Shown in pieces: positions 6,618 through 64,000 of a DNA stretch of 64,000 nt; the stretch's first letter is position 1, and the number at the start of each line of letters is the position of its first letter. Source of the DNA: Candidatus Magasanikbacteria bacterium GW2011_GWC2_37_14 (GTDB lineage Bacteria > Patescibacteriota > Patescibacteriia > Magasanikbacterales > UBA922); the NCBI GenBank assembly GCA_000990355.1, contig LBSX01000008.1:40316-104315 (forward strand). The letters are read 5' to 3'. Below the pieces are notes generated by a model. That model saw nothing but the letters and a program-made list of their open reading frames with translations, was not told where the DNA came from and searched no databases. Both the position numbers and the translations under genes were made by a program.

Positions 6618-6621
6618 TTTT

Positions 6622-12204: not shown

Positions 12205-12295
12205 TGTTTTCCTCCCCTTGGAAAGGGGAGGACAGGAGGGGTTGATTGTATTACTGTCAACCACCCCTCCCCCCTCCTTTCCAAGGAGGGGAAAC
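12205..12295. repeat. Family A GC-rich palindromic repeats (two inverted units)
   Basis: cctccccttggaaaggggagg ... cccctcccccctcctttccaaggagggg. Confidence 0.8.
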
Positions 12296-13086: not shown

Positions 13087-13248
13087 AGTGGGATTATTAT
13101 AACAGATTTTGATAAATTAAAAAAACCAGTTTTTTAAGCTGGTTTTTTGGGCTAACCCCTTCGCCCTTTGGGGCACCTCCCCTTCGTAAGGGGAGGTCAG
13201 ACACTGCCCCCTCCTTACGAAGGAGGGGTGGCCGGAGGCCGGGGTGGT

Positions 13249-14684: not shown

Positions 14685-16469
14685 ATGAAAAATAAAAGTT
14701 TTCTAGGTTTTAGTTTAATAGAAGTCATGGTAGGCGTGGCTGTTTTTTCGTTAATCTTTGTGGGTATTTATTCGGGAGTGCAGTTAGTTTTTAAAGTTGT
14801 TTATCAATCACGTTTGCGAATTTTGGAAACTGGAGTATTAAATGAACAAGTAGAAATAATTCGTAATCTTCCTTTTGCTGATGTGGGTATTGTAAATGGT
14901 AGTCCAAGTGGGGTATTGGTGCGTACTGTTACAAGTACGCGCAATAATATTGATTTTTTGGTTACGCGTACAATTCGCAATATTGATGATTCTTTTGATG
15001 GATTAATTGGTGGAGTACCAAATGATACAGCACCAGCGGATTATAAATTAGTAGAAGTAGAAGTAACTTGTCCAAGTTGTGGACAAAGAGAACCAGCAAG
15101 ACTTTCTACTTATATTGCTCCAAAAAATTTAGAAGGTAATTTAAATCACGGAGCTTTGTTTGTAGAAGTCTTTGATTCCGAAGCTGAGCCCGTGCAAGGA
15201 GCTACAGTGCACATTGTGGCCACCTCTACCAATCCTCAATTAGATATGACCGATGTTACTGATAACGAAGGAATGCTCCGAATTGTAGATTTGGCTACAG
15301 GCACTGCTGCTTATGCAATTACTGTAAGCAAGGATGGTTATACTAGTGAACAAACAATGTTGCCAAGTGTTAGTGTGCCTAATCCAGTTAAATTGCCAAT
15401 TTCTGTAGCTGTCCAAATAGTAACAGAAATTAGTTTTTCTATTGATTTGGTTTCTTCATTGCAAATTCAAACTTTAAATAGTGTTTGTAGTGCTCTGGGC
15501 AGTGTGGGTTTAAGTGTTCTTGGCACCAAAGTAATTGGCATTGAACCAGACGTTTTAAAGGTTAATCAAAATATTACTACCAATGGTTCGGGAATTTATA
15601 ACTTAACAAATCTGGAATGGGACAATTATGGTTTAAAGCCTAGTGCTTATGATTTGGTTGGTTCTATTCCAGCCACACCAATAAATTTGTCCGCTGGAGT
15701 AGATCAACCAGTACAATTAATATTGGGGGCCAACACAGCCAATTCACTATTGGTGCAAGTAAAAGACAGTGTAACCGATCAGCCAGTTTCTGGTGCTCAG
15801 GTAAAAATTAGTAAAACTGGTTATGAACAAACAAAAATTACTGGTGTGGGTTATGTTCGTCAAACAGATTGGTCGGGTGGTACTGGTCAATTAAACATGA
15901 GTGACGAATCAAAATATTGGTCTGATGATGGAAAATTAGAAATTAATAGTCCGGCAGGTGATTTAAAACTTAGAGAATTAGGACAGTCCTATGTTTCGAG
16001 TGGTTATCTTGAATCATCTATTTTTGATTTGGGTACATTGGTAAATTTTGTGGATTTAATTTTTGAACCCTTGTCCCAACCAGCAGAAACTGGGGCAGAT
16101 TCTTTACATTTTCAAGTGGCAGTAAGTACTACTTCTACCCCCGTAAGCTGGAATTATCTTGGGCCAGATAATACTTCGGCTACTTATTATAATTCTACAA
16201 ATTATTCTTTAAATAATTTGCCAAACAACCAGCGTTATTTTCGTTATAAAGTATTTTTGCAAACTGTCGATAATAACTATACACCAATTCTTTCTGATTT
16301 AAATATTACTTATATTACTGCCTGCACTCCGCCTGGCCAAACTTATTTTGGTAATTTGTTGGCCGAAACTTATACGGTAGAAGTTAGCGCTAATGGTTAT
16401 CAAACAACTACCCAAACAGTAACTTTGAGTGGAGATGTAATTATGGGTATAGAATTAGCTGCTTCTTAA
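14685..16469 (+). CDS. Large type IV pilin-like protein (prepilin N-terminal cleavage/methylation motif)
   Basis: N-terminus KSFLGFSLIEVMVGVAV (G/FSLIE class III signal). The rest is beta-rich, probably adhesin or carboxypeptidase-regulatory-like. Confidence 0.65.
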   Translation: MKNKSFLGFSLIEVMVGVAVFSLIFVGIYSGVQLVFKVVYQSRLRILETGVLNEQVEIIRNLPFADVGIVNGSPSGVLVRTVTSTRNNIDFLVTRTIRNIDDSFDGLIGGVPNDTAPADYKLVEVEVTCPSCGQREPARLSTYIAPKNLEGNLNHGALFVEVFDSEAEPVQGATVHIVATSTNPQLDMTDVTDNEGMLRIVDLATGTAAYAITVSKDGYTSEQTMLPSVSVPNPVKLPISVAVQIVTEISFSIDLVSSLQIQTLNSVCSALGSVGLSVLGTKVIGIEPDVLKVNQNITTNGSGIYNLTNLEWDNYGLKPSAYDLVGSIPATPINLSAGVDQPVQLILGANTANSLLVQVKDSVTDQPVSGAQVKISKTGYEQTKITGVGYVRQTDWSGGTGQLNMSDESKYWSDDGKLEINSPAGDLKLRELGQSYVSSGYLESSIFDLGTLVNFVDLIFEPLSQPAETGADSLHFQVAVSTTSTPVSWNYLGPDNTSATYYNSTNYSLNNLPNNQRYFRYKVFLQTVDNNYTPILSDLNITYITACTPPGQTYFGNLLAETYTVEVSANGYQTTTQTVTLSGDVIMGIELAAS

Positions 16470-16518
16470 TTTTTATCCCCCTCTTCCCAAGAGAGGGCAG
16501 GGGGAGTTGCCGAAGCTT

Positions 16519-20543: not shown

Positions 20544-20650
20544 TAAATTTACAATTTACATTTTCCAATTTACAATAAATTTTCAATTTTACAATTGTAA
20601 ATTGTTAATTTGTTGAAAATTGTGAATTGATAATTGAAAATTAAATTTTT

Positions 20651-23912: not shown

Positions 23913-24431
23913 ATGATTAAATTAATGAAAGCTTTAAATAATAAATTAGTAGTATTAGCTGTAGTAACTTTGGCTTTTGGTTTATTGCTTTTGCCAGGTT
24001 TAGCTTATGCAGAGATTGATGCTGCCTGTGCCGATGATACTGAATGTGACGCGGGTGAAATTTGTGGAGTAGATGAAACTTGCGTGGCCGACCCTTCTAC
24101 CTCAGGTTCAGACGCCAAAGACCCATTTGGAATAAATTATGGTGCTAAAACTGGTTTAGGTTCCAGAGATATTCGCGATACCATTGGTAGCATTATTAAT
24201 GTAGCTTTGGGTTTACTCGGCATTGTGGCCGTAGTAATCGTCTTGGCTGGTGGTTTTAAATGGATGACCTCTGGTGGTAATGAAGAAAAATCTACCGAAG
24301 CTCGCAAATTGATTTTTGCTGGTATTATTGGTTTGGCAATTATTTTGTCTGCCTATGCAATTTCTAGATTTGTCTTAACACAATTGTATACCGCAACAAG
24401 TACAAGTGGTACAGCTACCTATGGAGTATAA
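23913..24431 (+). CDS. TrbC/VirB2-like pilin-family protein; paralog 4
   Basis: Signal peptide, a short Cys/acidic segment, then IRDTIGSIINVALGLLGIVAVVIVLAGGFKWMTSGGNEEKSTEARKLIFAGIIGLAIILSAYAISRFV. Confidence 0.6.
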   Translation: MIKLMKALNNKLVVLAVVTLAFGLLLLPGLAYAEIDAACADDTECDAGEICGVDETCVADPSTSGSDAKDPFGINYGAKTGLGSRDIRDTIGSIINVALGLLGIVAVVIVLAGGFKWMTSGGNEEKSTEARKLIFAGIIGLAIILSAYAISRFVLTQLYTATSTSGTATYGV

Positions 24432-24559
24432 GTAGCATTTACATAGTCTCTTAAGTTAGGAGAAAATATAATGTTAACAAAAGGAATTATTACCCCCGAC
24501 AGATTGTCGGGGGTAATAATGGCCTTGATTGTAGGTTGTTATTTGTTATCAAGCTGTCA

Positions 24560-24645
24560 TTCCTTAGCGTCATTCCCGCGCAGGCGGGAATCTTACACTA
24601 GTTAAAAAGATTCCCGCCTGCGCGGGAATGACGCACGAAGAAAGG
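24560..24645. repeat. Family B palindromic repeat pair (GTCATTCCCGCGCAGGCGGGAAT ... ATTCCCGCCTGCGCGGGAATGACGC)
   Basis: Two inverted copies. Relatives occur at 4930, 8566, 11905, 52068 and 62226. Confidence 0.8.
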
Positions 24646-24693
24646 TGGCAATGACAAATTGATACTGAGTAATAAATTACAATAATTATATAT

Positions 24694-25095
24694 ATGAAAA
24701 AAGCATTTTTATTTTTAAGTCTAATGTTTGTTTTGTTATTTGGATTTTTTTGCACTTTTAAACCAGTTTTGGCACAAGGTCCTTATTTAGGTTTGGAATA
24801 TGGAGCCGACACTGGACTTTCTACCAAAGACATTCGTTTTACTACCGCCAGAATTATCAATACGGTGCTTGGCCTTTTGGGCATGGTTTCGGTAGTAATT
24901 ATTATTTATGCTGGTTTTAAATGGATGACTGCCGGTGGTAATGAAGAAAATGCCACTTCGGCCAGAAAAATTTTATTTTCGGCAGTAATCGGTTTGGTAA
25001 TAATTCTTAGTGCTTATTCTATTGCTCGTTATGTAAATACTAGTTTATACAAAGCGACTACTGGCTATGACTATGAGTCAATGATTATTGAATAG
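24694..25095 (+). CDS. TrbC/VirB2-like pilin-family protein; paralog 5
   Basis: IRFTTARIINTVLGLLGMVSVVIIIYAGFKWMTAGGNEENATSARKILFSAVIGLVIILSAYSIARYV. Confidence 0.6.
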   Translation: MKKAFLFLSLMFVLLFGFFCTFKPVLAQGPYLGLEYGADTGLSTKDIRFTTARIINTVLGLLGMVSVVIIIYAGFKWMTAGGNEENATSARKILFSAVIGLVIILSAYSIARYVNTSLYKATTGYDYESMIIE

Positions 25096-25100
25096 TATAT

Positions 25101-25622
25101 ATGAAAAAAATATTATTTTTATTAGTTGGTTTGGTAATAGTTTTTTCTCCAGTTTTGGCAATGGCGGAAGATTCTTATGGTTTGGAAACAACGGCTGGAG
25201 CTGCCAAATTAAAAAGTGATAAAGATTTGCCCACTTTGGTTGGTAATGTGGCTGGTACTGCACTTTCTTTGGTAGGTGTAATATTTTTTGCTTTAATGAT
25301 TTATGCTGGTTTTTTGTGGATGACTGCCCAAGGTAAAGAAGAACAAGCCAAAAAAGCTTTGGACACAATTATTGCCTGTATTATTGGTTTAATAATCATT
25401 TTGGCCGCTTATGCGATTACTAGATTTATTTTTAATAGTGCGGGGGTGGGAGGAAGTGGTACAGTGCCTCAAGAAAAACAGTGTGATGCTACATCTGTTG
25501 CTTCGTGTAAATCTAAACCTGAGAGTACTACAGCTTGTACTGAAACAGCAGGTGGGGTAACTACTAATGGGTTTTGTCATTTTGTAAACCCACAGTCAAA
25601 GAGTTGTAGTTGTGGAAATTAG
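25101..25622 (+). CDS. TrbC/VirB2-like pilin-family protein with a C-terminal Cys-rich tail; paralog 6
   Basis: Conserved domain LVGNVAGTALSLVGVIFFALMIYAGFLWMTAQGKEEQAKKALDTIIACIIGLIIILAAYAITRFI, then a 9-Cys tail. Confidence 0.6.
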   Translation: MKKILFLLVGLVIVFSPVLAMAEDSYGLETTAGAAKLKSDKDLPTLVGNVAGTALSLVGVIFFALMIYAGFLWMTAQGKEEQAKKALDTIIACIIGLIIILAAYAITRFIFNSAGVGGSGTVPQEKQCDATSVASCKSKPESTTACTETAGGVTTNGFCHFVNPQSKSCSCGN

Positions 25623-25632
25623 AATATTTATT

Positions 25633-26340
25633 ATGTTTTTTGGTTATAAAAAAATAATTTTAATTTTAGCAGTATTTTTGAATATATTTTTTTTTGGAAA
25701 CCAAGCTTTGGCAGCTTACACTTTTGATGACACTGGCCTGATGCTTGGTAAAGCCGCGGAGCCAACAGGAATGTTGGATACCAAAGTCACTGGGTCTTTG
25801 CCAGTAGTTTTGGGTTTTTGGGCCACAGTAGCATTTTCATTAGTAAGCATTGTCTTTTTTATTTTAATGTTTTATGCTGGTTTTTTGTGGATGACAGCGC
25901 GTGGTTCGGAAGAAGTGGTAACCAAAGCCAAGGGCATAATTACTATGGCCATAATTGGTTTGTTTGTACTCGTAGCCTCGTATGCAATTACCACCTTTAT
26001 TACTAGCAGTTTAGTTCCTGGTGTGGCTGGTAATAAAGCCGCTGGTACTGGTAATTTGGAAGTTGGGCCAAATAATCCCGAAGGTTGTTGTGTGGATTGG
26101 GTAGCCACCGATAGTCAGTGGTTTGGCGCAGTTGGTACCTTAAAAAAAGATAATGACGGTGGTTTTGTGGGAGTAAGTGCTTGCCGGATAACTACAAAGT
26201 CTGATTGTGAATTACAAGGTACAACAGAAACGGAAAGTGATGTGTTGGCTGGCCCCGAAGGTGTTGGTTATTGGGTATTTGATGAAGCTATAAAAGAAAA
26301 AGAGGCTTGTCAAAGTGCTTATTGTAAATTAGCAAATTAA
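25633..26340 (+). CDS. TrbC/VirB2-like pilin-family protein with a C-terminal Cys-rich domain; paralog 7
   Basis: Start moved to the ATG at 25633 because the track start is a GTG. Conserved domain, then a roughly 110-aa tail with 7 Cys. Confidence 0.55.
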   Translation: MFFGYKKIILILAVFLNIFFFGNQALAAYTFDDTGLMLGKAAEPTGMLDTKVTGSLPVVLGFWATVAFSLVSIVFFILMFYAGFLWMTARGSEEVVTKAKGIITMAIIGLFVLVASYAITTFITSSLVPGVAGNKAAGTGNLEVGPNNPEGCCVDWVATDSQWFGAVGTLKKDNDGGFVGVSACRITTKSDCELQGTTETESDVLAGPEGVGYWVFDEAIKEKEACQSAYCKLAN

Positions 26341-26349
26341 TAAAAAATT

Positions 26350-26715
26350 ATGAAAAAAATATTTATAACTCTGGCATTATTTACAATTTTGTTAACACCA
26401 GTTTTTGTTTTTTCTGCCAATACTGGTTTGGGTGCCTTAACAAAAAATTTAAGTGATACTGGCAAAGCCGCAGAAATAAGTGAAACTGGTACTTTGCAAG
26501 ATATTGTTGGTACAGGAATTGGAGCGGCCCTTACTTTGGTTGGATTAATTTTTATGATTTTAATGGTTTATGGTGGATATTTGTGGATGGTTGCGAGAGG
26601 TGCCGAAGAAATGATCACCAAGGCCAAGGGAATTATTACTGCTGCGATTATCGGTTTGGTAGTAGTAATTAGCGCCTATGCCATAACAGTATTTATTACA
26701 GGTAGGTTTCAGTAA
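26350..26715 (+). CDS. TrbC/VirB2-like pilin-family protein; paralog 8 (minimal form)
   Basis: Signal peptide plus a short linker plus the conserved domain only (121 aa). Confidence 0.6.
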   Translation: MKKIFITLALFTILLTPVFVFSANTGLGALTKNLSDTGKAAEISETGTLQDIVGTGIGAALTLVGLIFMILMVYGGYLWMVARGAEEMITKAKGIITAAIIGLVVVISAYAITVFITGRFQ

Positions 26716-26735
26716 TTAGTTTTATTTTAAATGAT

Positions 26736-27122
26736 ATGAATATAAAGAAAATAATTTTAATAGCCATCTTTAGTTTATTATTGTGTACCCCAGTATTGGC
26801 GAAATTAAATTTGGGCACAGGAATTGCTGGGCAGGCGGCGGTAAAAGCTGGTTATGAAGGAAATACTAGTGAAATAACTTTTTCGCAAAATATTGGTACA
26901 GTAATTAATGCCGCACTTTCGCTAGTGGGTGTAATATTTTTGGTTTTAATGGTTTATGCGGGATATTTGTGGATGACAGCACGTGGTTCGGAAGAAGAAA
27001 TTACCAAAGCCAAAGGAATTATTATTGCGGCCATGATTGGTTTAATTTTGGTGGTAGGTGCTTATAGTATTACTACTTTTGTGGTACCACGTATTTTGGC
27101 TAGTGGCGTCAAAACTCCCTAA
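26736..27122 (+). CDS. TrbC/VirB2-like pilin-family protein; paralog 9
   Basis: IGTVINAALSLVGVIFLVLMVYAGYLWMTARGSEEEITKAKGIIIAAMIGLILVVGAYSITTFV. About 75% identical to paralog 7 within this domain. Confidence 0.6.
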   Translation: MNIKKIILIAIFSLLLCTPVLAKLNLGTGIAGQAAVKAGYEGNTSEITFSQNIGTVINAALSLVGVIFLVLMVYAGYLWMTARGSEEEITKAKGIIIAAMIGLILVVGAYSITTFVVPRILASGVKTP

Positions 27123-27123
27123 T

Positions 27124-27531
27124 ATGAAAAAAATTGTTTTGTTAATAATTTTATTTGTTAGTCTAGGGTTATTCCCTTTGGCCTTGCAGGCTCAAGTAAA
27201 TAAAACTACGGGTGAAAAAATTATGGGGCAAGTAGGTGCTAGTGCCGAAAAGGCCGAAATTGGGGCGCCAGCAGATTTTAGAGTAGTTGTTACCAGAACC
27301 ATAAAAACTCTTCTTGAGACAGTTGGTGCAGTATTTATTATTTTAATAGTTTATGGCGGTTATACTTTTATTACTGCTGAGGGCGAAGAAGAAAAAGTAA
27401 CCAAAGGTTTAAATATAATCAAGCCAGCAATTATTGGTTTAATAATCATTTTGGCGGCTTATGGTATTACTTTGTATGTGGGCATACGGTTTACCCAAGC
27501 AGTAACTGAAGGGGCCACAATAATGCGTTAA
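27124..27531 (+). CDS. TrbC/VirB2-like pilin-family protein; paralog 10
   Basis: Start moved to the ATG at 27124 (MKKIVLLIIL). Conserved domain is present. Confidence 0.55.
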   Translation: MKKIVLLIILFVSLGLFPLALQAQVNKTTGEKIMGQVGASAEKAEIGAPADFRVVVTRTIKTLLETVGAVFIILIVYGGYTFITAEGEEEKVTKGLNIIKPAIIGLIIILAAYGITLYVGIRFTQAVTEGATIMR

Positions 27532-27536
27532 AATTT

Positions 27537-28046
27537 ATGAAAAAGTTCTTATATCTTATTTTGCTAGCCGTTTTTTTAAGTGGTTTATTTACTTTTGTCC
27601 AAGTTAAGGCAGCTGATTATCGTGCTGATACCATGAATCAACTTTCCGCTACCGCTGGTGCCAATGGAGCCAACTATGGCACAGCGCGTGATCCACGAGC
27701 AATTGTGGCCCAAGTAATAAAAATTTTTTTGGGTACAGTAGGAATATTGTTTGTGGCTTACACGGTTTATGCTGGGTTTATAATACTAACTTCTGGTGGT
27801 AATGAAGAAAAAGTTGGAAAAGCCAAAAAAATGATTTTTTATGCGACCATAGGTATTATAATTACTCTCTCTGCTTATGGGATAGTTTTGTTTGTACAAA
27901 GATATTTTGTAGGAGATACTGGCGGTTTAAATGGCAGTGCTAGTTATGGGCCGTGGTATGTAGAAGGAAGTTTAAACGTGGATGAGAGTAATAGTCAATT
28001 TTATTCTCCAGATCCCTTGGAACAAGATACACTTATTTATCACTAA
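27537..28046 (+). CDS. TrbC/VirB2-like pilin-family protein; paralog 11
   Basis: VAQVIKIFLGTVGILFVAYTVYAGFIILTSGGNEEKVGKAKKMIFYATIGIIITLSAYGIVLFV, followed by a terminator hairpin (catccgcctcatcggcggatg plus T-run). Confidence 0.6.
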   Translation: MKKFLYLILLAVFLSGLFTFVQVKAADYRADTMNQLSATAGANGANYGTARDPRAIVAQVIKIFLGTVGILFVAYTVYAGFIILTSGGNEEKVGKAKKMIFYATIGIIITLSAYGIVLFVQRYFVGDTGGLNGSASYGPWYVEGSLNVDESNSQFYSPDPLEQDTLIYH

Positions 28047-30660: not shown

Positions 30661-31362
30661 ATGCACCATCCACAAGTAAAACATACAATTGAGATTTTTA
30701 AAAAATTGTTTGCCAATTTGCCACCCTTGGTGCCACCAGAAGTGGCCAATGAAATGGAACATGCTCTTATTCACTTACAAAGTGATTATTTGTTGACACC
30801 AGAAGAAATGGATAATATGGTAATTGCTTTTGGTAAAAAAATTTGGCCATATTGGAAAGCTTTTGAAGAATTTTATGCTTTGTATCAAGGCAAGTTGGGA
30901 GAAAAATTTTTACTAGGCAAATTAAGTACTGGTGTAAAAAAGCATTATATTTTATTTAAAGACCATGGCGCTGATTACAAAGATTTGCGAATGGGCAAAG
31001 GTGCAGAATTTTTTTCTTTGGAAGAAAGAATGGAATTTAAAGGTGCTTTGGTAGAGATAGACAATGAGTTAAGAAAATATGTACAACAAGAAGTGCTGTC
31101 GGTTGAAAGAACAAAATACGAAGATTTAATAATTAGTTTTCAAACTATTTTTGAGGATATTGAAAAAAGATTGGGTACTTTGCGCTTAATGGCCGAAGAC
31201 GAAGCCGAACACCCTCAAATTGCTTCGGAAATAAGAGAACAGGTAAAAGCTTTTGAATTTGGTTTATGTTTGCTGGGGCCTCATAGTCGGCTAAGTGAGC
31301 TGGTAGAATTTGAAGATTATTACCTGGAAAGAAAAATGACTAAAAAAATATTAGGAAAATAA
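30661..31362 (+). CDS. Hypothetical all-alpha protein (233 aa)
   Basis: Long ORF with a sigma70-like promoter upstream (TTGACA-17-TATACT at 30268-30296). No recognisable motif. Confidence 0.5.
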   Translation: MHHPQVKHTIEIFKKLFANLPPLVPPEVANEMEHALIHLQSDYLLTPEEMDNMVIAFGKKIWPYWKAFEEFYALYQGKLGEKFLLGKLSTGVKKHYILFKDHGADYKDLRMGKGAEFFSLEERMEFKGALVEIDNELRKYVQQEVLSVERTKYEDLIISFQTIFEDIEKRLGTLRLMAEDEAEHPQIASEIREQVKAFEFGLCLLGPHSRLSELVEFEDYYLERKMTKKILGK

Positions 31363-31365
31363 AAC

Positions 31366-31470
31366 CCCCCCAGCTCCACTACGTTGCGCCGGGCAGGCTA
31401 GTAAACTTTGTTAAAAAGATAGTCTAGCTTGCCAGGCGCAGTGAAACGGAGACTGGGGGGGGATTGTTTT
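31366..31470. repeat. Family C 95-nt long-hairpin element, copy 1 (cccccc-arm-loop-arm-gggggg)
   Basis: Identical, apart from one loop base, to 62564-62665. Lies between convergent genes. Confidence 0.85.
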
Positions 31471-39153: not shown

Positions 39154-39909
39154 ATGAATAATAAAATTGATAAAATATATTTTGATTTTGATAGCACCCT
39201 AATTAAGGCGGAAAGCTTGGATTTGTTGGGAATAAGGCGAGGGGTAGGAAAAAATGTTTCTGCTATGACAAAACGTTCAATGAACGGCGAAGTGGCATTC
39301 TCTGATATTTTTTTAGAAAAAATGCAATTAATTTCTCCGACAAAAAATGATCTCGATGTTGTAGCACAAGAGTGTGTTGGTTTGTTGGTAGCTGGTGTGC
39401 TGGAAACAATGAAATTATTGCGTGCTTTGGATAAGCAGGTATATATTCTGTCAGCTAATTTTTATCCAATGATTTTGCCGGTGGCGAAAAAACTTGGGTT
39501 AGACGAGAATAACATTATTGCCAATGAGATATTTTTTGATGGGGATGAAAATTTTTTGAATTTTAATACTAGTTCGTTGTTGGCTCAGGATTATGGCAAA
39601 GCAAGAGTGTTACAGCAAGAAAAACAAAAAGGTGGAAGATTAGCATTGGTAGGAGATAGTGTAGCCGACTTGGAGGCAGCAAGTGAGGTGGATGTTTTTG
39701 TTGGTTTTGGTGGAGTTGTACAACGAGAAAAAGTATTTAAGGAGTCAAAACATTTTGTTTCCTCACCATCATTATTGCCATCTTTAAATTTCTTGTTATC
39801 GGATGATGAGATAAATAAATTGAAAATTATTGGTTTTGAAAAAATAGTAAATGAAATTCAAAAATTGACTACCATTACTACAACCGGGACAGGGCCGGTT
39901 GCTTGGTAG
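39154..39909 (+). CDS. HAD-superfamily hydrolase (phosphoserine phosphatase-like)
   Basis: Motif I FDFDSTL and motif IV GDSVADLEA. The C-terminal tail runs into the GC-rich block. Confidence 0.7.
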   Translation: MNNKIDKIYFDFDSTLIKAESLDLLGIRRGVGKNVSAMTKRSMNGEVAFSDIFLEKMQLISPTKNDLDVVAQECVGLLVAGVLETMKLLRALDKQVYILSANFYPMILPVAKKLGLDENNIIANEIFFDGDENFLNFNTSSLLAQDYGKARVLQQEKQKGGRLALVGDSVADLEAASEVDVFVGFGGVVQREKVFKESKHFVSSPSLLPSLNFLLSDDEINKLKIIGFEKIVNEIQKLTTITTTGTGPVAW

Positions 39910-39983
39910 TGGTATTAGTTTTTGAACAAAATACTCGCCAAGGCTGGCGGGTATTTTTGTTTAAAAAAGCGGGAGGAGGAAAT

Positions 39984-41297
39984 ATGCGAGAGGGTGCGTT
40001 GCTTTTGCCTGAGTTTAGTTCGTTGTATCGATTTCGTGAGCCAGACGTGAGGCAGTATCAACAGCAGAAGGGAGTGGAACAGATCAAGCAGGAGAATGAT
40101 CTGTTTACAGACCCAATTAATGGATGTGATTGTGTCTTTACCTCTCACCGAATTGGAACAGTGCTTGTGGCGCCACGATCTCAGTGTTTGACGCGTTTTC
40201 CTGGGCACAGCTTGCCTGGTCCTGGTGGTAATTGCCAGATTAACACCGGAGCTTTGGAGTGGAATCGTTTTCAGGAACTCGCCAAATTCGCAGGGATTCC
40301 AGTGCTCGGAGATTGTCAGTTGGTATCGACGGTAGCAGAGCCGAAATTGCCGTCGTGGGATTGGTTGGGTGTGGCTGAGCCGGATATATTTGTCTTGAGT
40401 CCCATCATTGTCCAAACGTTGCCGTGGGGTGAGGCTGAATGGCAGATGTATGTTGAAGGGTTGCGACATAGTCTGCGTCAGGTGCACAATTGTAGCATGG
40501 CGAAGATTCTGTCGTTGGCACGCCAGGCTTGGGACCAACACGGTAAAATGATCTATGACAGCGATGCACTCCTGTGGGCAGAGAAAATTATGTGCGTCGT
40601 GGGCAAAGAGAATTGTGATTTGAATGCGATTTTCGAGTTGGAAGCGGCGGTTAGCTGTCGACAGTACTCTCGCGATCTCCGTATTCATAGTCGGGGTGTT
40701 TACCGCGGCATGTGGATCGAGGTTGGAGAAGTTGGACTCGCTTCCATCAAGGCAACGGAGTTGGTTATGCCAGTGCGTATTATTCAAGAGCTCCAGAGTC
40801 TGTACAAGAACGGTTTTGCTCCCATCGTGGTGAATGAGTATGGGTGCAATACGGATGGTAGTCATCGTCATACGACTGCCTGGCTCTGGAATTTGCTCAA
40901 GGCTATTGGATCGTTCAATTCGGGAGTGCTCCAATCGCGTGTCACCGAATTCGTCGTGAAGCATTGTCTGGCCATGGGTCCGATCATCACCCGTGAAGTA
41001 TTGCGTGTGTTGTCCGAATTGTTGGCTAATCACCGCCAACTCTTGTTCGAAGAAATCATGCCACAAGTGCAGAGATATAATCCGATTGCTACTTTGCCGG
41101 TCATACTGCTCAATGAGTATTCGGCTGGCACGGTTGTGAAGAAGGAATATGATGAAGGCACGGCAGTGCGGCGTGTTGATCCTGAGACGTATCGGTTGCT
41201 TGCCAATAACCCTTCCTTCACCCTTCCGGCACGTGGTCCCTATCACCGTACGGACCGATCGATCCTTCCCTGGTTTCAAATTCTGGAAAAGGAGTAG
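39984..41297 (+). CDS. Unknown 437-aa protein encoded on a GC-rich (about 52%) island with atypical codon usage
   Basis: Strong RBS GGAGGAGG-4-ATG. The plus-strand translation is complex and protein-like, with conserved Cys/His clusters (CDC, NEYGCNTDGSHRH). The equal-length minus-strand ORF is low-complexity R/S-rich and judged to be a shadow. Confidence 0.55.
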   Translation: MREGALLLPEFSSLYRFREPDVRQYQQQKGVEQIKQENDLFTDPINGCDCVFTSHRIGTVLVAPRSQCLTRFPGHSLPGPGGNCQINTGALEWNRFQELAKFAGIPVLGDCQLVSTVAEPKLPSWDWLGVAEPDIFVLSPIIVQTLPWGEAEWQMYVEGLRHSLRQVHNCSMAKILSLARQAWDQHGKMIYDSDALLWAEKIMCVVGKENCDLNAIFELEAAVSCRQYSRDLRIHSRGVYRGMWIEVGEVGLASIKATELVMPVRIIQELQSLYKNGFAPIVVNEYGCNTDGSHRHTTAWLWNLLKAIGSFNSGVLQSRVTEFVVKHCLAMGPIITREVLRVLSELLANHRQLLFEEIMPQVQRYNPIATLPVILLNEYSAGTVVKKEYDEGTAVRRVDPETYRLLANNPSFTLPARGPYHRTDRSILPWFQILEKE

Positions 41298-43895: not shown

Positions 43896-43952
43896 ATAAA
43901 TAATTTACAATTATCAATTTACAATTTTCAAATAATTTTTAAACAAGAAAAT

Positions 43953-44228
43953 ATGATTGAACCATATACTGGTAAAATAAAAATTAATTTAAAAAAGGTG
44001 CATGGGCAATTGGCCTTAATTGATAAAATGATTGTCGAAAATAGATATTGTTTGGATATTGCCCAGCAAGTAAATGCGGCTATTGGGATACTCAAACAAG
44101 TAAATAATCACATTTTGGAAAGTCATTTGCTTTCTTGCGGAACCAATAAATTGGAATCTAAAAGTGAAAAAGTGCGTTTGGAATTTGTAAAAGAATTAAT
44201 GAAAGTTTTTGATCAAACTAAAAAATAA
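43953..44228 (+). CDS. csoR: CsoR/RcnR-family metal-sensing transcriptional repressor
   Basis: DUF156 pattern: HGQLALIDKMIVENRYCLDIAQQVNAAIGIL with conserved Cys/His/Cys ligands. Confidence 0.8.
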   Translation: MIEPYTGKIKINLKKVHGQLALIDKMIVENRYCLDIAQQVNAAIGILKQVNNHILESHLLSCGTNKLESKSEKVRLEFVKELMKVFDQTKK

Positions 44229-47962: not shown

Positions 47963-48409
47963 TGTCAGGCATTCATAAATGAATTGCACCACGTCCGCAT
48001 ACGTTTGGACCTCTGGGTATAACAATAAAGTTAAACGACAATGTTTACTTACATAAAATTATACTTAGATTAACCAGGCGTGGCAATTGACTTTTCTGTT
48101 AAATTGATCGCTTGAAGGCGATCTTTTTTTCCACGAAAAGTGGCGTAATGAAATAAGCCACTTGGAGTAGGAACCGCGTGATGAGCAAAGCGAATTTTAC
48201 GCGGTAAACACGGTGCCACATCGTGGCAGGCTCTCAGATCACAGACAGCGTAGATAAAAATCTAAATTGTCTGTGGCAAGAGATTTAGGGATAGAACTTT
48301 GACAATTCAAATTAAAAATATTAAATAGGTCAATTCAAAAATAAGCGGTCTTATTAAAGATTTAATAAGATAAAAAGAAAGCACAATTGTGTGTTTTCGT
48401 AGTATGCAT

Positions 48410-51690
<3,281 letters not shown>

Positions 51691-51894: not shown

Positions 51895-52340
51895 ATGGCG
51901 GTGTTTTTTTTGTCTCCTCCTTACGAAGGAGGAGTACCCCGACGTCGCAGTCGGGGGGAGGTGGTTAGCAAATCCCCTCTAGAGAGGGGTGTCGCGTCAG
52001 AAGCGACGGGGTGTGTTGGTTTCCCTCCCCTACGAGGGGAGGATTAGGGTGGGGTTTCGTCACCGTCGTCTGTCATTCCTGCGCAGGCAAGAATCCACCC
52101 GCCTGCCATCGCTATGCTCTAGCATTAGCGGGCAGGGAAATCGTCCAATTACTCTTACCTCCATGGAGCAAAAACTTCGCGCTAAACAAACACTGCGGAA
52201 AATTTAGGACTCGTCATTCGTTTTTGCTCGTGCGAGCCTAAAGAGGCTCTAGACGAGCAAATCCTTCTTCGCTATAGAGCTCCGAAGGAACACTCTTCCT
52301 CGCCTCTAAATTTTTACCTTGTGTTTGTGCGCGCGTGAGT
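51895..52340. repeat. Dense cluster of GC-rich hairpin repeats (families A and B plus further palindromes) downstream of 5S
   Basis: ctcctccttacgaaggaggag, ccccgacgtcgcagtcgggg, cccctctagagagggg, tccctcccctacgaggggagga, gtcattcctgcgcaggcaagaat, tttgctcgt...acgagcaaa, and GTTTGTGCGCGCGTGA (also present at 62487). Confidence 0.75.
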
Positions 52341-55859: not shown

Positions 55860-56735
55860 CTAATTCTTTTTTTGTTTTAAAATATTTATAAAATATATTA
55901 TTCCCCACACAACAAACGGCACACTCAACCATTGCCCGGTGGTTAAGCCAAAATAAGTTGGAAATTCTTTAACAAATTCAATTATAAAACGAGAAGAAAA
56001 ATAGAGTATTAAAAATAAATGAAAGATAAAAAGATTTGGTAGTTTTTCTTTGTCGCGTAAAGTTACACCACGCGACACGTATTTTTTATAACTAAAATAT
56101 AGAATTATAAATATTATAAGTAACGCCAGTGCTTCGTAGAGCTGTGCAGGGTGGCGTAGGACAGGGTTTAACTCGTAATTGGGGAAATATACACCCCAGG
56201 GTAAATTAGTGGCTCTGCCGACAATTTCCGAGTTAAAGAAATTTCCAATCCTAATAAACATTGCCAAAAGTGGGATAGGAATGATAAGGATGTCCAGAAT
56301 TTTACGCCAATCTAATAACCCCCCCCGCCCCCCTTTTTCAAGGGGGGTAACGTCGTTTTTCCCCCTTAATAAAGGGGGATTAAGGGGGTTGTTGGCTTTT
56401 ATTTTGATGAATAAAAAAAATGTTAATAACAAACCAATTGTCATACCATGGCTAGAAAGCCCACCATGATTAATCATAATCATTTCTAGCGGATGGGTAA
56501 AATAAAAAGTAGGCTCGTAAAATAAAATTTCTCCTAGTCGAGCGCCAATTAGTCCGCCAACTATTAGCCAAGTACATAAATCATAAGCCAAATTTATTGG
56601 ATATTTTTTTTGTTTAAATAATTTAGCAATAATATAAATTGCTATTCCGACACCGAGAGCCAAAAAAAGACCGTACCAGCGGATGGTGATAAAACTGTAT
56701 TGGAATAGGATTGGATTAAGATTATTAGTAATCAT
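55860..56735 (-). CDS. lgt: Prolipoprotein diacylglyceryl transferase carrying an in-frame, repeat-encoded 25-aa insertion
   Basis: Lgt signature FIRIGNFFNSEIVGRATNLPWGVYFP and an N-terminal WYGLFLALGVGIAIYI. The residues NPLNPPLLRGKNDVTPLEKGGRGG are encoded by a family A repeat at 56316-56390. Confidence 0.8.
   Translation of the reverse strand: MITNNLNPILFQYSFITIRWYGLFLALGVGIAIYIIAKLFKQKKYPINLAYDLCTWLIVGGLIGARLGEILFYEPTFYFTHPLEMIMINHGGLSSHGMTIGLLLTFFLFIKIKANNPLNPPLLRGKNDVTPLEKGGRGGLLDWRKILDILIIPIPLLAMFIRIGNFFNSEIVGRATNLPWGVYFPNYELNPVLRHPAQLYEALALLIIFIILYFSYKKYVSRGVTLRDKEKLPNLFIFHLFLILYFSSRFIIEFVKEFPTYFGLTTGQWLSVPFVVWGIIYFINILKQKKN
56316..56390. repeat. Family A GC-rich palindromic repeat located inside the lgt coding sequence
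   Basis: cccccctttttcaaggggggtaacgtcgtttttcccccttaataaagggggattaagggggtt. Compare 62518-62552, cctcccctttataaggggaggattaaggaggggt. Confidence 0.8.
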
Positions 56736-56811
56736 AGGTTACTGGACATTATTGTATTTTTGTGTTTAAATAGTTCCAAACGACCCAAGTGGGTTTTTTG
56801 GGAGGGACGAT

Positions 56812-57132
56812 ATGCCATCGGTTTTGGTAGTGCGGGAAGAGGATCTCAAGCGGTGTCCGAAGGCCTTTCGGGATTACGTGAGCGAGTTCTTCGCGAGGTA
56901 CATGATCTGGGGCGTGCGAGTTCGTTATGCCGCTACCTATTCCTTCGAGCCCAGTGGCGGTTACCGCAAGGGTCACGCACCTTCGCACAGCGTGGAGCTC
57001 GCCAGGTTCACCGAGGGGCTGGCTGGTCAGTCTCTAAATAGCTGGATGAACCAGGCGGCGAGACAGGACATCGTTCTCCATATACCTGTCGGTCAACACG
57101 CAAGTGGTTCATCGTGGGCCGATGACGACTAA
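56812..57132 (+). CDS. Hypothetical 106-aa protein on a GC-rich (about 58%) islet
   Basis: RBS GGGAGGG-6-ATG. Followed by a long imperfect hairpin (aatcgacttgccaccatgt...acatggaggttttgcaagtcgatt) at 57150-57235. Confidence 0.45.
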   Translation: MPSVLVVREEDLKRCPKAFRDYVSEFFARYMIWGVRVRYAATYSFEPSGGYRKGHAPSHSVELARFTEGLAGQSLNSWMNQAARQDIVLHIPVGQHASGSSWADDD

Positions 57133-57262
57133 TGGAGGTTAGAAGAATGAAGTGTCGTGCACCGCCGAAAGGACATGGTTGGGATGAGAATCGACTTGCC
57201 ACCATGTTTTTCTCTAAAGTTTTTTAGTGAAAGACATGGAGGTTTTGCAAGTCGATTTTTGT

Positions 57263-58036
57263 TTACTCTAACAGTAACAACGCCATCATTACTGCCACAC
57301 CCAAAATAGAAATTACAAGTTGTAAAGCAGATTTTTTAGCATTGGTTTCTTTGTGAAGTTCTGGTACCAAGTCCGAGCCAGCAATATAAATAAAACTGCC
57401 GGCGGCAAAAGGAATTAAAAAAGATGTAATATGGGGAATAAATTGGCTAACTAAAATAGCAATTATTGCGCCAAGTATAGCTGTTAAGCCAGTAATAAAA
57501 TTTAAAAATAAAGCGCGTTTTCTGTTGTAACCGCCATGCAGTAATATACCAAAATCACCGATTTCTTGAGGAATTTCGTGTAGAATTACCGCAAAAGTAG
57601 TGGCAAGCCCAAGTGGAATATTTACCAAATAACTGCCGCCAATAATTAAGCCATCAATAAAATTATGTACCGTGTCGCCAATTAAATTCATTTTGGCAAA
57701 AGGAGCTACTTGCACGTGGTCGTGATGTTCTTCCAAACATTCGGTAGAATGGGTGTGGTGACAATGATGCCAGTGAATAATTTTTTCCATGACAAAAGAC
57801 AAGCCAATACCTAGTAAAACGTATAAAGAAACTTGTAAAGTAAATCCAGATTCTTCTACTGCTTCTGGCAAAAGATGAATAAAAGCATCGGCGAGCAAAG
57901 CACCAGCCGAAAAACTTACTAAGTAAATTAAAATTTTGCGTAGTTTTTCTTCTTTAATGGAAATTGAAGCTAGCCCAATTAGGGAAATTAAGCTGACGAT
58001 GGTAACGCTTAAAATTGAATAAATTATTGCGGTCAT
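57263..58036 (-). CDS. ZIP-family divalent metal (zinc) transporter, ZupT-like
   Basis: HEIPQEIGDFGILL signature, a His-rich loop (HWHHCHHTHSTECLEEHHDH), and 8 TM helices. Confidence 0.8.
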   Translation of the reverse strand: MTAIIYSILSVTIVSLISLIGLASISIKEEKLRKILIYLVSFSAGALLADAFIHLLPEAVEESGFTLQVSLYVLLGIGLSFVMEKIIHWHHCHHTHSTECLEEHHDHVQVAPFAKMNLIGDTVHNFIDGLIIGGSYLVNIPLGLATTFAVILHEIPQEIGDFGILLHGGYNRKRALFLNFITGLTAILGAIIAILVSQFIPHITSFLIPFAAGSFIYIAGSDLVPELHKETNAKKSALQLVISILGVAVMMALLLLE

Positions 58037-58887
58037 AAATTTATTTTAATCATTATGGGACAGTGGTCAGAACCAACCACTTGGTCCATAATTGTAGCAT
58101 CTTTTAAATATTTTTTCAAGAGTTTGCTAATAACAAAATAATCAATCCGCCAGCCAATATTTCGACGACGGGCGCCAAAGCGGTAAGTCCACCAAGTATA
58201 TTTTATGTCTTTGGGGTGAAGTTCACGAAAAGTATCAATCATTTTATTCTTTAAAAATTTATCAAAACTCGTGCGTTCTTCAATAGTAAAGCCAGCATTT
58301 TTTTCATTTTCTTTTGGATTGGCCAGATCAATTTCTGTATGAGCTACGTTAAAATCCCCAGTAAAAATAACAGGTTTTACTTGCCCTGAGCTAGCCGAAG
58401 GGGTTTGTTCCAAATTTTTAATATGTTTAAATATTTTATTATTAAATTCAATTTTAAAATCAAGGCGCGATAAATCATGGCGAGTGTTGGGGAAATATGC
58501 ATTTACAAAATAAAATTTTTCAAATTCAATTGTTTGTACTCGGCCCTCGCTATCGAATTTATCTAGTCCTAAGCCATTAATAACAGCAATATCTTTTTTA
58601 TTTTCTCGCTGTGGGTTCGCTCCGCTAGGTCCTCGCTTCGAAAATAAAAAAGCTATTGTTGTATCCTTAATCAAGATCGCCGTGCCGGCATAACCTGGTC
58701 GTTCGGCCGAATTCCAGAATTCTGTATAGCCCGGAAAATCTAATTTAGCGTCAAAGCGATCCTTCTCGGCAATTTTAACTTCTTGTAAAGCTAAAATATC
58801 TGGTTGATATTTTTTTAAGACATCTAAAAAGCCATTACGCAAACAGGCGCGAATACCATTTACATTCCAGCTCATTAAAGTGATCAT
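58033..58887 (-). CDS. xth: Exodeoxyribonuclease III / AP endonuclease
   Basis: MSWNVNGIR ... LALQEVK ... a C-terminal DHCP motif. Start moved to the ATG of MITLMSWNVNG because the track start is a TTG. Carries a possible roughly 20-aa insertion (SKRGPSGANPQRENKKDIAV) encoded by a GC-richer segment at 58600-58660. Confidence 0.8.
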   Translation of the reverse strand: MITLMSWNVNGIRACLRNGFLDVLKKYQPDILALQEVKIAEKDRFDAKLDFPGYTEFWNSAERPGYAGTAILIKDTTIAFLFSKRGPSGANPQRENKKDIAVINGLGLDKFDSEGRVQTIEFEKFYFVNAYFPNTRHDLSRLDFKIEFNNKIFKHIKNLEQTPSASSGQVKPVIFTGDFNVAHTEIDLANPKENEKNAGFTIEERTSFDKFLKNKMIDTFRELHPKDIKYTWWTYRFGARRRNIGWRIDYFVISKLLKKYLKDATIMDQVVGSDHCPIMIKINL

Positions 58888-62290: not shown

Positions 62291-62563
62291 CTAATAAAAT
62301 CAAAACTACTTTTCAGTAGTTTTTGTTTTATATTCATTTTACTTTTTGTCACCAAAAAGTAACAAAAAGTGCCGGGGTAAAAAACTCGCGCCTTCAACTA
62401 AAGATTAAAGTATTATCTATTCAAGCCCTGGGCGCTCAAACAGTTTTACCCCTGGACCCCAGGTTTTTTCTGTGGTGTGTAAATGTTTGTGCGCGCGTGA
62501 TTGAGTGTTTCTTTTTCCTCCCCTTTATAAGGGGAGGATTAAGGAGGGGTATTTTACAAACAA

Positions 62564-62665
62564 AAAATCCCCCAGCTCCACTACGTTGCGCCGGGCAGGC
62601 TAGTAAACTTTATTAAAAAGATAGTCTAGCTTGCCAGGCGCAGTGAAACGGAGACTGGGGATTTT
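62564..62665. repeat. Family C 95-nt long-hairpin element, copy 2
   Basis: cccccagctccactacgttgcgccgggcaggctagtaaactttattaaaaagatagtctagcttgccaggcgcagtgaaacggagactgggg. One mismatch relative to copy 1. Confidence 0.85.
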
Positions 62666-62820
62666 TTATTTTCAACTATTTACAAAATAATTTTATAAAC
62701 ACTTGAGTCACCCTTGGTCCTCCAAGGCCAAGGTGCTCCTTCTTGTGAAAGGAAAAGATCGATAAAGAATGTGGGTTTTTTGCCCCGGAGCTGGGGCGGG
62801 TGGTGGGGTGGGGTAGCAGT

Positions 62821-63879
62821 TTAGCGGGGCTCCGGCGTGGTGGGGATGTCGCCACCGCTGAAGAACTTGTTCGGGTCGGCGAGCATCGCCTGGGTCGGTG
62901 GCGTTGTGGGGTGAAGTTCGTACTCCACCACGACCTCATTGCCGACGCGTTTCCAGGTGATGTGTCTCTTGTCCAGGACGTGGTTCACGGCGAAGGGGAA
63001 CTTCGGGTTCATCCACACCATCACCTCGTCGCCCTCCTTGAGCTGCTCGCCCCGTTCGCCCGGCTTGTGGATGTAGACGACTGTCGACATGCTCGGCATG
63101 TTCACCACGGCCACCAGGCGTTCCGTGCTCTCGATGGTGCGGGCCTGGAGCTTGATGAAGCACCAGCCCGCGTCTTCCATGCGACGGCGGAGGGACATGT
63201 ACCAGCTCACCTGGTGGACGTTCGACGGCCACTCCACGAAGTCGTTCTGGAGCGGCAACATCTCGAATTTCGGCGGGAACCGGTAGGGCTCTCCACCCAG
63301 CATGGCCCAGCGCAGGGCGCAGGGTATGGTGAGCGGGTAGTTCCTGGACCAGAGGTGCCGTCGGAAGCATTCCTTCTTGCTTCCGTCGCCGTCGGCCAGA
63401 CCCTTGAGTCCCTGGACGATCAGGGGGATCGTCCGCCAGGTGGGCACGAGGCGGAGCGAGAGCCCCACCTGAAGGCTCTGGGGCAGGTTGAGACGACGGA
63501 GAACTTCGATCGTTTGCGAGTTGACGACGCTCTCCAACCGATCCACCGCCCGGATGGCGATCGGCCAGGCATCGTGGTTGCCCAGCGAGGCGCGGATGTG
63601 CTCATAGATGATGAGCACCTTCTCGGGCTGTACCGAGGCGATCTCGAGGAGCATGTGCACCAGGTCGGAAAAACCGAATTTGGCCCAGGCCAGCGCGTTT
63701 TCCAGGAAGGCGCGCTGGAACTCGCGGCAGCAGGGCTCGTCGCCGAGACACGCCCTTCTGATCGTTTCGTCGTTCGCACCCGCTTCGATCAGCCAGCTGA
63801 AGACCTGGTGGATGTCCATCCCTTCTTCGGTCTCGAGCTTGGCCCACATCTCGCGCAGGAGCTCGGGCTGGATGGCCAT
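62821..63879 (-). CDS. Unknown 352-aa protein on a high-GC (about 62%) island
   Basis: RBS GAGGAGG-5-ATG on the minus strand. The translation is complex and W/R-rich. All plus-strand ORFs in this block are Arg/His/Gly-rich antisense shadows. Confidence 0.55.
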   Translation of the reverse strand: MAIQPELLREMWAKLETEEGMDIHQVFSWLIEAGANDETIRRACLGDEPCCREFQRAFLENALAWAKFGFSDLVHMLLEIASVQPEKVLIIYEHIRASLGNHDAWPIAIRAVDRLESVVNSQTIEVLRRLNLPQSLQVGLSLRLVPTWRTIPLIVQGLKGLADGDGSKKECFRRHLWSRNYPLTIPCALRWAMLGGEPYRFPPKFEMLPLQNDFVEWPSNVHQVSWYMSLRRRMEDAGWCFIKLQARTIESTERLVAVVNMPSMSTVVYIHKPGERGEQLKEGDEVMVWMNPKFPFAVNHVLDKRHITWKRVGNEVVVEYELHPTTPPTQAMLADPNKFFSGGDIPTTPEPR

Positions 63880-64000
63880 GTTGGCCTCCTCTCAGCAACC
63901 AAGGGCTTCTGTTCCCAGGGTTGCAAAGCAAAAATTGAGCAGTCGGACACCCTTGTGCCAACCGCAGGTTCTTTAACTAAACGTTATTTTCGCAAATAAC

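Follow-up and report, generated by a model that had tools for sequence, protein, structure and literature searches.

Repeats of the BoxC/PIT/TM class are abundant in bacteria, and their units have the layout of a class II purine-motif intrastrand triplex, in which a pyrimidine arm is followed by a purine arm and then by a mirror purine arm (Holder et al. 2015, PMC4666352, with references there to earlier work by Hoyne/Maher and on BoxC). The repeats are often paired as inverted palindromes, show an association with local genome instability and are not linked to transposons. Triplex formation was demonstrated in vitro, with TM_ECO oligonucleotides, but was not detected in vivo; PIT elements have neither promoter nor terminator activity, and in E. 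coli MG1655 TM_ECO is 'always located intergenically' (PMC4666352). The subject here is a segment with this anatomy inside a protein-coding gene, lgt (prolipoprotein diacylglyceryl transferase), of Candidatus Magasanikbacteria bacterium GW2011_GWC2_37_14, within the 64,000 nucleotides of contig LBSX01000008.1 that were analysed (positions 40,316 to 104,315; 'the window' in what follows). It is considered very probable that the segment is a complete copy, of about 75-80 nt, of a dispersed selfish class II triplex-motif doublet that was inserted at the turn between transmembrane helices 3 and 4 (TM3 and TM4), was tolerated there and is read through.

Palindromic repeats in coding sequence have a precedent in the Rickettsia palindromic elements (RPEs; Ogata et al. 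2000, 2002), which, as PMC10969869 sums them up, lie in frame in unrelated housekeeping genes, about half of the copies being genic. In-frame colonisation is to that extent less of a rarity than the initial annotation, which called it uncommon, had supposed. The likeness is of a multicopy palindromic repeat that stands in frame in coding genes and adds a peptide without destroying the protein. However, RPEs are described as ~100-150 bp long, in families of their own (RPE-1 to RPE-10) and in Rickettsia only, whereas the lgt-type element has units of 30-45 nt, doublets of ~75-80 nt, a triplex-motif anatomy, contigs of GC 0.35-0.65 and a Candidatus Magasanikbacteria host, the two being set apart by description and not by sequence. 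With REPINs (Bertels and Rainey 2011, PMC3116915) the element has in common inverted doublets with a spacer, a predicted long hairpin in single-stranded DNA or mRNA, and coexisting singlets; REPIN-like inverted doublets were found at 4106-4190, 12210-12291 and 56316-56390 of the window, at 2905-2995 of L001 (a relative's locus from an independent metagenome assembly of another sample; other L numbers are likewise fetched loci) and 13 times on metagenome contigs. REPINs differ in being extragenic and tied to RAYT, and no RAYT link was seen for the lgt family in the window or related loci. Nor do the family units, read from their sequences only, start with the conserved GTAG or CGTC tetranucleotide head that PMC3733652 gives for REP units.

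Both the triplex-motif repeat class and in-frame colonisation by palindromic repeats are already known. What is new, relative to the literature searched, is the occurrence of BoxC/PIT-like doublets as protein-coding inserts, in Patescibacteria and environmental bacteria, and the recurrent filling of the Lgt turn; a literature search for such repeats in Patescibacteria or the Candidate Phyla Radiation (CPR) found nothing relevant.

The doublet within lgt and its family

The gene is an intact minus-strand open reading frame (ORF) of 291 amino acids (aa). The features on which the argument draws are these, matches to a covariance model and an ITxF-like scan (both described below) being included.

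55860 to 56735, minus strand: lgt, recognised by Pfam LGT, by a match to PDB 5AZB in sequence and fold, and by conserved active-site counterparts
56313 to 56396, minus strand: DNA inserted relative to empty sites, 28 codons (ANNPLNPPLLRGKNDVTPLEKGGRGGLL), net +26 aa, one full-length inverted doublet
56316 to 56347, minus strand: half A of the doublet; model match at 56312-56353 (minus), also found by the ITxF-like scan
56348 to 56359, no strand assigned: spacer between the halves, AAAAACGACGTT region on the coding strand, holding one of the three substitutions relative to L001
56360 to 56390, plus strand: half B of the doublet; model match at 56353-56395 (plus), also found by the ITxF-like scan

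The Pfam LGT match (E = 1e-58) is split in two by the insert, and E. coli Lgt (5AZB), the only solved relative, aligns with residues 6-111 and 149-283, so that 112-148 are without a counterpart; an AlphaFold model gives a fold match to 5AZB with a Foldseek E of 2.6e-11 and a TM score of 0.72. The insert has a length that is a multiple of three and encodes the stop-free peptide NPLNPPLLRGKNDVTPLEKGGRGG, and the one coding-strand frame of three that is open across it is the reading frame of lgt. Its description in the initial annotation as an in-frame expansion rather than a disruption is borne out. At a GC content of 0.536, against 0.326 for the remainder of lgt, positions 56316-56390 comprise two C-run/G-run hairpins, with runs of 5-8 C and 5-8 G and AT-rich loops between them, the C runs supplying Pro codons, the G runs Gly, and the T/A feet Leu, Lys and Asn. 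Half A reads as a class II triplex motif on the coding strand, CCCCCCTT gaaa AAGGGGGG cgg GGGGGGTT (the zero-mismatch register having been read by eye), and encodes TPLEKGGRGGL. Half B does so on the plus strand, TCCCCCTT aata AAGGGGGA tta AGGGGGTT, with eight triads and no mismatch, and its coding strand encodes NPLNPPLLRG.

Coding-strand RNA of the insert is predicted to fold at -49.5 kcal/mol (z = -4.05, none of 200 shuffles being as good), forming one long hairpin with interruptions. Purine-motif triplexes do not form in RNA (PMC4666352), so any triplex would be a property of the DNA, with the mRNA forming a hairpin. A hairpin of such stability speaks to some extent for a segment that is present in the gene and yet untranslated, being removed from the mRNA or skipped by the ribosome. 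Ribosome bypassing of short inserts is known from T4 gene 60 and the byps of yeast mitochondria. However, none of the filled lgt genes has a stop or a shift of frame in the insert, the frame used is the only open one, and no bypass signals were seen, although no search was aimed at them; bypassing or removal is very improbable.

Neither lgt half has an exact or near-exact copy elsewhere in the window at up to 3 mismatches, and the case for family membership is for that reason made by a covariance model, trained on 11 intergenic units only. The two halves are its best non-training matches in the window, at 25.2 bits (E = 8e-6) for A and 22.3 bits (E = 7e-5) for B, E-values that are rough owing to a shortened calibration; the next non-training match to span the whole model is at 11.8 bits. 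In Rfam no family reached its gathering threshold in the window, the matches over the insert being sub-threshold and microRNA-like hairpins only. Family units start TTT(T)CC... and end ...GGGG-TT(G/A), and within the window take the form TTTYCC[T]CCCCTT-loop-AAGGGG[A]GG-short loop-GGAGGGG. All copies there other than that in lgt are intergenic:

4106 to 4190, forward unit 4106-4140 and reverse unit 4146-4190: inverted doublet (model and scan)
8959 to 8991, plus strand: single unit CCTCCCCCT aca AGGGGGAGG tga GGAGGGGGT (model and scan)
12210 to 12291, 12210-12243 plus and 12259-12291 minus: inverted doublet (model and scan)
13201 to 13245, plus strand: unit with a weaker third arm (model, 32.4 bits)
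16470 to 16513, plus strand: unit in a 37-nt gene spacer (model)
52024 to 52055, plus strand: unit downstream of 5S rRNA, its third arm having T opposite A (GGTGGGGT) (model and scan)
62516 to 62551, plus strand: unit (model and scan)

In the last of these the second loop, tta, and the first A of the third arm together read ATTAA, as in half B of lgt. L001 2905-2995 is a further intergenic inverted doublet. A reading of the repeats as intrinsic terminators was discarded, only one family unit being terminator-like and none of the terminator-like sites lying in lgt.

In copies compared side by side the third, G-rich box of the units always mirrors the second and does not repeat it directly, as in GGGGAGG...GGAGGGG, AGGGGGAAG...GAAGGGGG and AAGAGAGGGG...GGGGAGAG, with T sometimes in place of the A that a mirror would call for (AAGGAGGGG...GGGGTGGTT). 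The sample used to assess this was 227 distinct pyrimidine-loop-purine hairpins, drawn from the window and from every fetched locus (nested variants of one hairpin among them), the purine arm being required to have an internal A and not to be itself symmetric, and A or T being allowed opposite A. A copy of the purine arm just downstream was present as a mirror only in 90 of the 227, as both mirror and direct repeat in 32 and as a direct repeat only in none; the 105 with neither are largely opposite-strand readings in which the third arm is on the other side. Random rearrangements of the arm recur downstream at 8.5%. The lgt arms themselves are homopolymeric, and for them only the T/A feet (AGGGGGTT, GGGGGGTT) are informative in this respect.

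The published ITxF criteria are stems of 6-15 nt, loops of 1-6 nt and at most one mismatch (PMC4666352). An ITxF-like scan of the window, with a stem of at least 8 nt, a first loop of 3-6 nt, a second of 1-6 nt and at most one mismatch, gave 8 motifs, whereas none came from any of 30 simulated windows. Of the 8, two are the lgt halves (B with an 8-nt stem and loops of 4 and 3 nt, A with an 8-nt stem) and six are intergenic units with stems of 8-10 nt. Both the class II arm order and the mirror arm are thus present in the family. The strict TM_ECO pattern, CCCTCNCCC N3-6 GGGNGAGGG N3 GGGNGAGGG, had no match in the window, though it stands next to C5/G5 units in three metagenome loci. On its arm pattern, then, the family unit is assigned to the known class II triplex-motif class and not to the TM_ECO family of E. 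coli. What it has in common with BoxC/PIT/TM repeats is the arm order, with a reverse-Hoogsteen mirror arm and G.G-C, A.A-T or T.A-T triads, stems of 8-10 nt and loops of 1-5 nt, numerous dispersed copies with frequent inverted ('palindromic') doublets and no observed transposon link, and decay of copies by small deletions. It differs in its arms, which are C5-8/G5-8 or CCTCCCC and not CCCTCNCCC, in its hosts, which are Patescibacteria and mixed environmental bacteria rather than Proteobacteria or Cyanobacteria, and, with respect to the strictly intergenic TM_ECO, in having copies in frame within lgt, RarA, TrmB, LipB and other genes.

Beyond the window, a pattern scan of metagenome contigs for one lgt half gave at least 120 stretches, on contigs with GC of 0.35-0.65. 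Among the 87 matches listed, 13 are complete doublets, which can be aligned with the lgt insert over its whole length and have the same architecture: C5-N5-C5-loop-G5, a spacer of ~10 nt, C6-loop-G6-N1-3-G6, and AAAT.../...ATTT feet. With 13 such doublets on record the lgt segment is one complete dispersed composite element and not two chance hairpins, and its identification in the initial annotation as a hairpin repeat of a wider family holds.

The same comparison bears on whether the insert is instead a palindrome that grew in place, produced by slippage and template switching out of the A-rich or T-rich codons with which TM3 ends. The empty site of relatives is itself an AT-rich near-palindrome (T7...A8 in L002), related copies do change by collapse, decay and tandem amplification, and no target-site duplication or transposase was seen. 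However, local growth would not be expected to reproduce independently loops and spacers such as the ATTAA stretch, nor the same ordered architecture on 13 other contigs and in other genes, and a model trained on intergenic units recognises both lgt halves. Growth in place is improbable, a little more so than the functional explanation taken up later.

Filled and empty lgt genes among relatives

The length of the turn was compared by the spacing from the conserved (S)HG motif, with which TM3 begins, to RxGN in the Lgt signature. This spacing is 64 aa in the window Lgt as against 38 aa in E. coli (from the 5AZB alignment), 37-38 aa in 62 of the 99 close homologs in which both motifs could be located, and 38 aa in 70 of 80 lgt loci of GTDB species representatives (labelled Magasanikbacteria, Peregrinibacteria, Gracilibacteria, Uhrbacteria, Nitrospirae and Thermodesulfobacteriota metagenome-assembled genomes), among which no gene had a frameshift at the site. 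In the relatives L002 and L003 the empty site reads ...AAATCAAAAAAAATTGATTGG... (K-S-K-K-I-D-W). The alignment with orthologs that the initial annotation had called for accordingly has the segment as lineage-derived; judged by these spacings it is derived and not ancestral. That it might be ancestral to Lgt and lost elsewhere draws some encouragement from a form common to P0002 and P0080, perhaps also to P0014, P0010 and P0066, though the exact 38-aa spacing in E. coli and in loci labelled with several phyla, together with the repeat composition and structure of the segment, reduces ancestry to a negligible chance.

Runs of eight C and eight G are prone to sequencing error, and a frameshift hidden in homopolymers had been named at the outset as something that would undo the observation. 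L001, however, has the same insert in frame in a gene whose protein is 82-84% identical to the window Lgt and whose coding DNA, the insert aside, is 83% identical (a flank divergence of 17%), a further copy with eroded arms is in the lgt of L006, and Lgt homology is in the same frame on both sides. A hidden frameshift or an assembly artefact, such as a chimeric hairpin, is on these grounds ruled out for all practical purposes.

Window and L001 inserts differ by three substitutions, all in loops or spacer and none in the 48 arm positions. The chance that three random hits would all miss 48 of 75 positions is ~5% by our own arithmetic, which is weak evidence. The conservation was at one stage considered as proof of selection, a use that was dropped since the adjoining TM3 codons are as conserved as the insert. 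As a separate observation, the lgt block from codon 85 to ~128 (TM3 and the first insert half; 56090-56440) has 93-97% DNA identity between window and L001, as against the 83% of the coding sequence outside the insert, and may be a recombination tract or chance.

As to where the insert lies in the protein, the AlphaFold model (mean predicted local distance difference test, pLDDT, of 88.6; predicted TM score of 0.87; 118 sequences) has TM3 at residues 95-115 and TM4 at 143-168. Only two parts are of low confidence: ~116-142, where pLDDT averages ~50 and drops under 50 at 122-124 and 129-138, and ~222-235, with an average of 58 over the 221-230 block. In E. coli Lgt, H103 is at the N-terminal end of TM3 close to the periplasmic interface, D129 is on the cytosolic side, and the signature motif closes TM4 on its C-terminal side, leading on to the periplasmic head (PMC4728403). 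D129 aligns with D148 of the window Lgt, and with H103 at the periplasmic end this orientation makes the insert the cytoplasmic TM3-TM4 turn, modelled as disordered, and not the periplasmic loop that had been put forward for checking against 5AZB. With the residue roles of E. coli Lgt, essential ones included, taken from PMC4728403, the counterparts of H103, R143, E151, Y235, R239 and E243 are present as H96, R162, E170, Y245, R249 and E253, in alignment columns that are invariant or nearly so, and the enzyme is probably active.

The site is not occupied in the window alone. Thirty-seven of the 99 homologs have from 2 to 46 additional aa at exactly this position. The type found in the window, PLxPPLxKGGxGGLL, recurs in P0002, P0080, P0014 and P0066, with a remnant in P0010; others are TPAPSPSKGEG, SPLTGGCRGVL, SAQGGSASGGK, a different hairpin family (SLRG...LLAMT) and Uhrbacteria types, so that, compared as sequences, at least five distinct insert types occupy the TM3-TM4 site. 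In DNA form there is a single unit in L004, a collapsed four-box palindrome in L007, and doublets in the window, L001, L006 and L008. In an Uhrbacteria lgt (L043), three loops each hold family units.

Nor is lgt the only gene involved. Family-model matches are in frame in RarA/MgsA (L031, L032 and L037), a TrmB-type regulator (L012/L020), LipB/LplA (L081) and an ATP-grasp/citrate-binding enzyme (L021), and, of 27 matches scoring 20 bits or more, ~40% are genic, in what is a small sample of lgt-centred loci. In the DNA-pattern sample, which is unbiased in this respect, 7 of the 87 matches listed fall in long spanning open frames, and six of these ORFs resemble real genes by inspection only: a methyltransferase-like one with IPLNPPLPKGDLINPTLEKGGRGGF, GAF/HD-GYP, UDP-GlcNAc 2-epimerase, GcvT/YgfZ-like, CinA-like and EngA. 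RarA/MgsA of L037 has three to four tandem in-frame copies (6569-6830) of a 17-aa repeat-derived unit, KTSPQSSPSQGEE-KKG, of which its close relative L031 has a single copy (16189-16313), a difference that indicates recent in-frame amplification. Such copies show that repeats of a class reported from E. coli K-12 as strictly intergenic can also lengthen predicted proteins.

Arrival and retention of the insert

A repeat copy entered lgt exactly at the cytoplasmic TM3-TM4 turn. Under the proposed course of events it would have been kept because its length is a multiple of three, because the one stop-free frame was the one in use and because the turn only connects two helices and takes no part in catalysis. 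The copy would be read through as a disordered loop of ~26 residues rich in Pro, Gly and Lys, presumably neutral or nearly so. Copies in other frames or places would be removed by selection, giving the TM3-TM4 turn the look of a hotspot, and later changes would come by slippage, as in the collapse to a single palindrome in L007, the decay in L006 and the tandem amplification in RarA of L037. For the class as a whole, polymerase stalling, slippage and error-prone repair at structures have been proposed in place of a dedicated transposase (PMC4666352), a proposal that fits collapse, decay and amplification but not dispersal.

Several points weigh against this account of a dispersed element that arrived, stayed and is translated. 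The arms of the lgt copy are pure C5-8/G5-8, as against the CCTCCCC type of the intergenic copies of the window, within which no donor was identified. No target-site duplication, which together with terminal inverted repeats would mark a MITE, is visible on comparing filled with empty sites, the flanks being diverged and the whole element palindromic, and no link of a transposase to the family was found. A search of metagenome contigs for an empty-site allele with identical flanks gave no matches, which leaves ongoing mobility conjectural, and the interleaving of filled and empty lgt genes is on a neighbour-joining tree too weakly resolved for counting gains against precise losses. Triplex formation by the lgt halves is a prediction from sequence, for a class in which it was not detected in vivo (PMC4666352), and translation of the insert into part of a working enzyme is likewise deduced from the gene itself.

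On the transposase question, no Y1 transposase was present in the window by phmmer of all ORFs of at least 80 aa with an approximate IS200 TnpA query. Y1 genes of Magasanikbacteria at L014 4165-4632, L020 3762-4229 and L023 690-1121 pass the IS200 model, but their 20-29 bits with the RAYT model are short of its cut-off of 80; the hairpins on either side of them, GTCCCGTAGGGAC and CCAGGCACTTTAGTGCCTGG, are a different repeat. As a side observation, these IS200-family genes are near triplex-motif units in two of the three loci.

A different explanation for retention is that the insert is kept for a function, be it a long mRNA hairpin that slows ribosomes between TM3 and TM4 or attracts an RNase, a DNA structure that modulates lgt transcription or replication, or a cytoplasmic peptide loop with a role in binding. 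Consistent with this are the -49.5 kcal/mol fold of the coding-strand RNA, the absence of change in the arms between window and L001 where third-codon positions elsewhere in lgt are 68.5% identical, and the repeated filling of the same loop in other lineages. However, most genes manage with an empty site (62 of the 99 close homologs, 70 of the 80 species-representative loci); where it is filled, the inserts have no sequence in common and add anything between 2 and 46 aa, and the L006 copy has decayed arms. Further, the adjoining TM3 DNA is equally conserved, and the conservation is possibly that of a local block; the loop is modelled as disordered, no terminator-like site is in lgt, and PIT elements are without promoter or terminator activity (PMC4666352). 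A selected function is accordingly thought improbable, and insertion of a tolerated selfish doublet remains the favoured explanation.

A bolder extension is offered tentatively and is more doubtful than not: triplex-motif doublets may be a widespread and unrecognised source of in-frame loop inserts, a cross-phylum counterpart of RPEs, with the Lgt turn a true recurrent landing site, and more than just the spot at which insertions are survived, its A-run/T-run DNA attracting or generating structures, and with triplex or hairpin DNA structure being part of the mechanism of insertion.

Other inserts and repeats of the window

lgt has a second insert. The xth gene (58033-58887, likely start MITLMSWN) has two segments that are absent from L002, L003, L004, L007 and B. 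subtilis ExoA (5CFE) and are both present in L001.

56046 to 56078, minus strand: second in-frame lgt insert, VSRGVTLRDKE, 33 nt, in the TM5-TM6 cytoplasmic loop
58587 to 58658, minus strand: xth insert 1, in which 19-nt AT-rich inverted repeats enclose a GC-rich core of 34 nt (58606-58639), encoding ...AFLFSKRGPSGANPQRENKKDI...
58381 to 58404, minus strand: xth insert 2, TPSASSGQ, shared only with L001, with no hairpin

The second lgt insert is of another sequence type than the doublet. It contains a 10-bp hairpin, GTCGCGT...ACGCGAC, at 56052-56076, has low pLDDT, is window-specific and a single copy there, and is absent from L001. The xth segment had been put forward in the initial annotation as comparable to that in lgt. 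It is a real lineage-specific insert (SKRGPSGANPQRENKKDIAV), shared with L001, and insert 1 folds at -20.2 kcal/mol (z = -3.85), but as a member of the lgt family it does not qualify: neither xth insert matches the family model, and the core is without another copy in the window. Going by the alignments, the xth inserts are lineage-specific inserts of another kind. The xth genes of L002 (7560-8375) and L003 (4629-5432) have a 10-aa insert of their own, SDPDGSALDG, in another loop, from which small lineage-specific inserts appear common in the lgt/xth neighbourhood.

Directly upstream of lgt, between it and a ZIP transporter gene, is a GC-rich island of ~450 bp (56749-57200), at the position of which L001 has instead its inverted triplex-motif doublet (2905-2995). 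The ORF at 56812-57132 in the island has no Pfam match, nor do the GC-rich islands of the window in general. A LAGLIDADG gene was called a short distance beyond lgt in L002 and L007.

Elsewhere in the window, stretches 39903-41297 (GC ~0.50) and 62800-64000 (0.47-0.62) stand out from a genome at ~0.35 and have long ORFs on both strands, with no Pfam or Rfam match in either. The 23S rRNA match (48400-51687) is of 3288 nt against a 2925-nt model, giving ~360 nt extra inside the gene. At 24216-27887 there are eight small paralogous genes in tandem that share a conserved ...YAGFLWMTA... segment, and the four of these that were tested match Pfam T4SS_pilin (TrbC/VirB2-like). A second intergenic hairpin family (GTCATTCC-GCG...GC-GGAATC) is at 4947-4971, 8603-8637, 11909-11933, 24567-24634 (a perfect 28-nt inverted doublet) and 52071-52095. 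A hairpin-containing repeat of 103 nt has two copies, at 31356-31458 and 62558-62660, 95% identical and 31 kb apart, and intergenic AT-rich arrays of AATTTACAATT-like words, as direct and inverted repeats, are at 8041-8191, 20546-20643 and 43901-43969.

In the lgt insert two phenomena meet, namely the BoxC/PIT/TM class and the 'protein-coding palindromes' known mainly from Rickettsia. From a practical perspective, such inserts add to the length of proteins, give rise to spurious ORFs and can lead the alignment and annotation of CPR genomes astray. The Lgt TM3-TM4 turn, with its filled, collapsed, decayed and empty forms, is a natural series for studying how a repeat arrives, changes and disappears. 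If the phenomenon is general, common structured DNA repeats would be a steady source of disordered Pro/Gly-rich loops in streamlined uncultivated bacteria.

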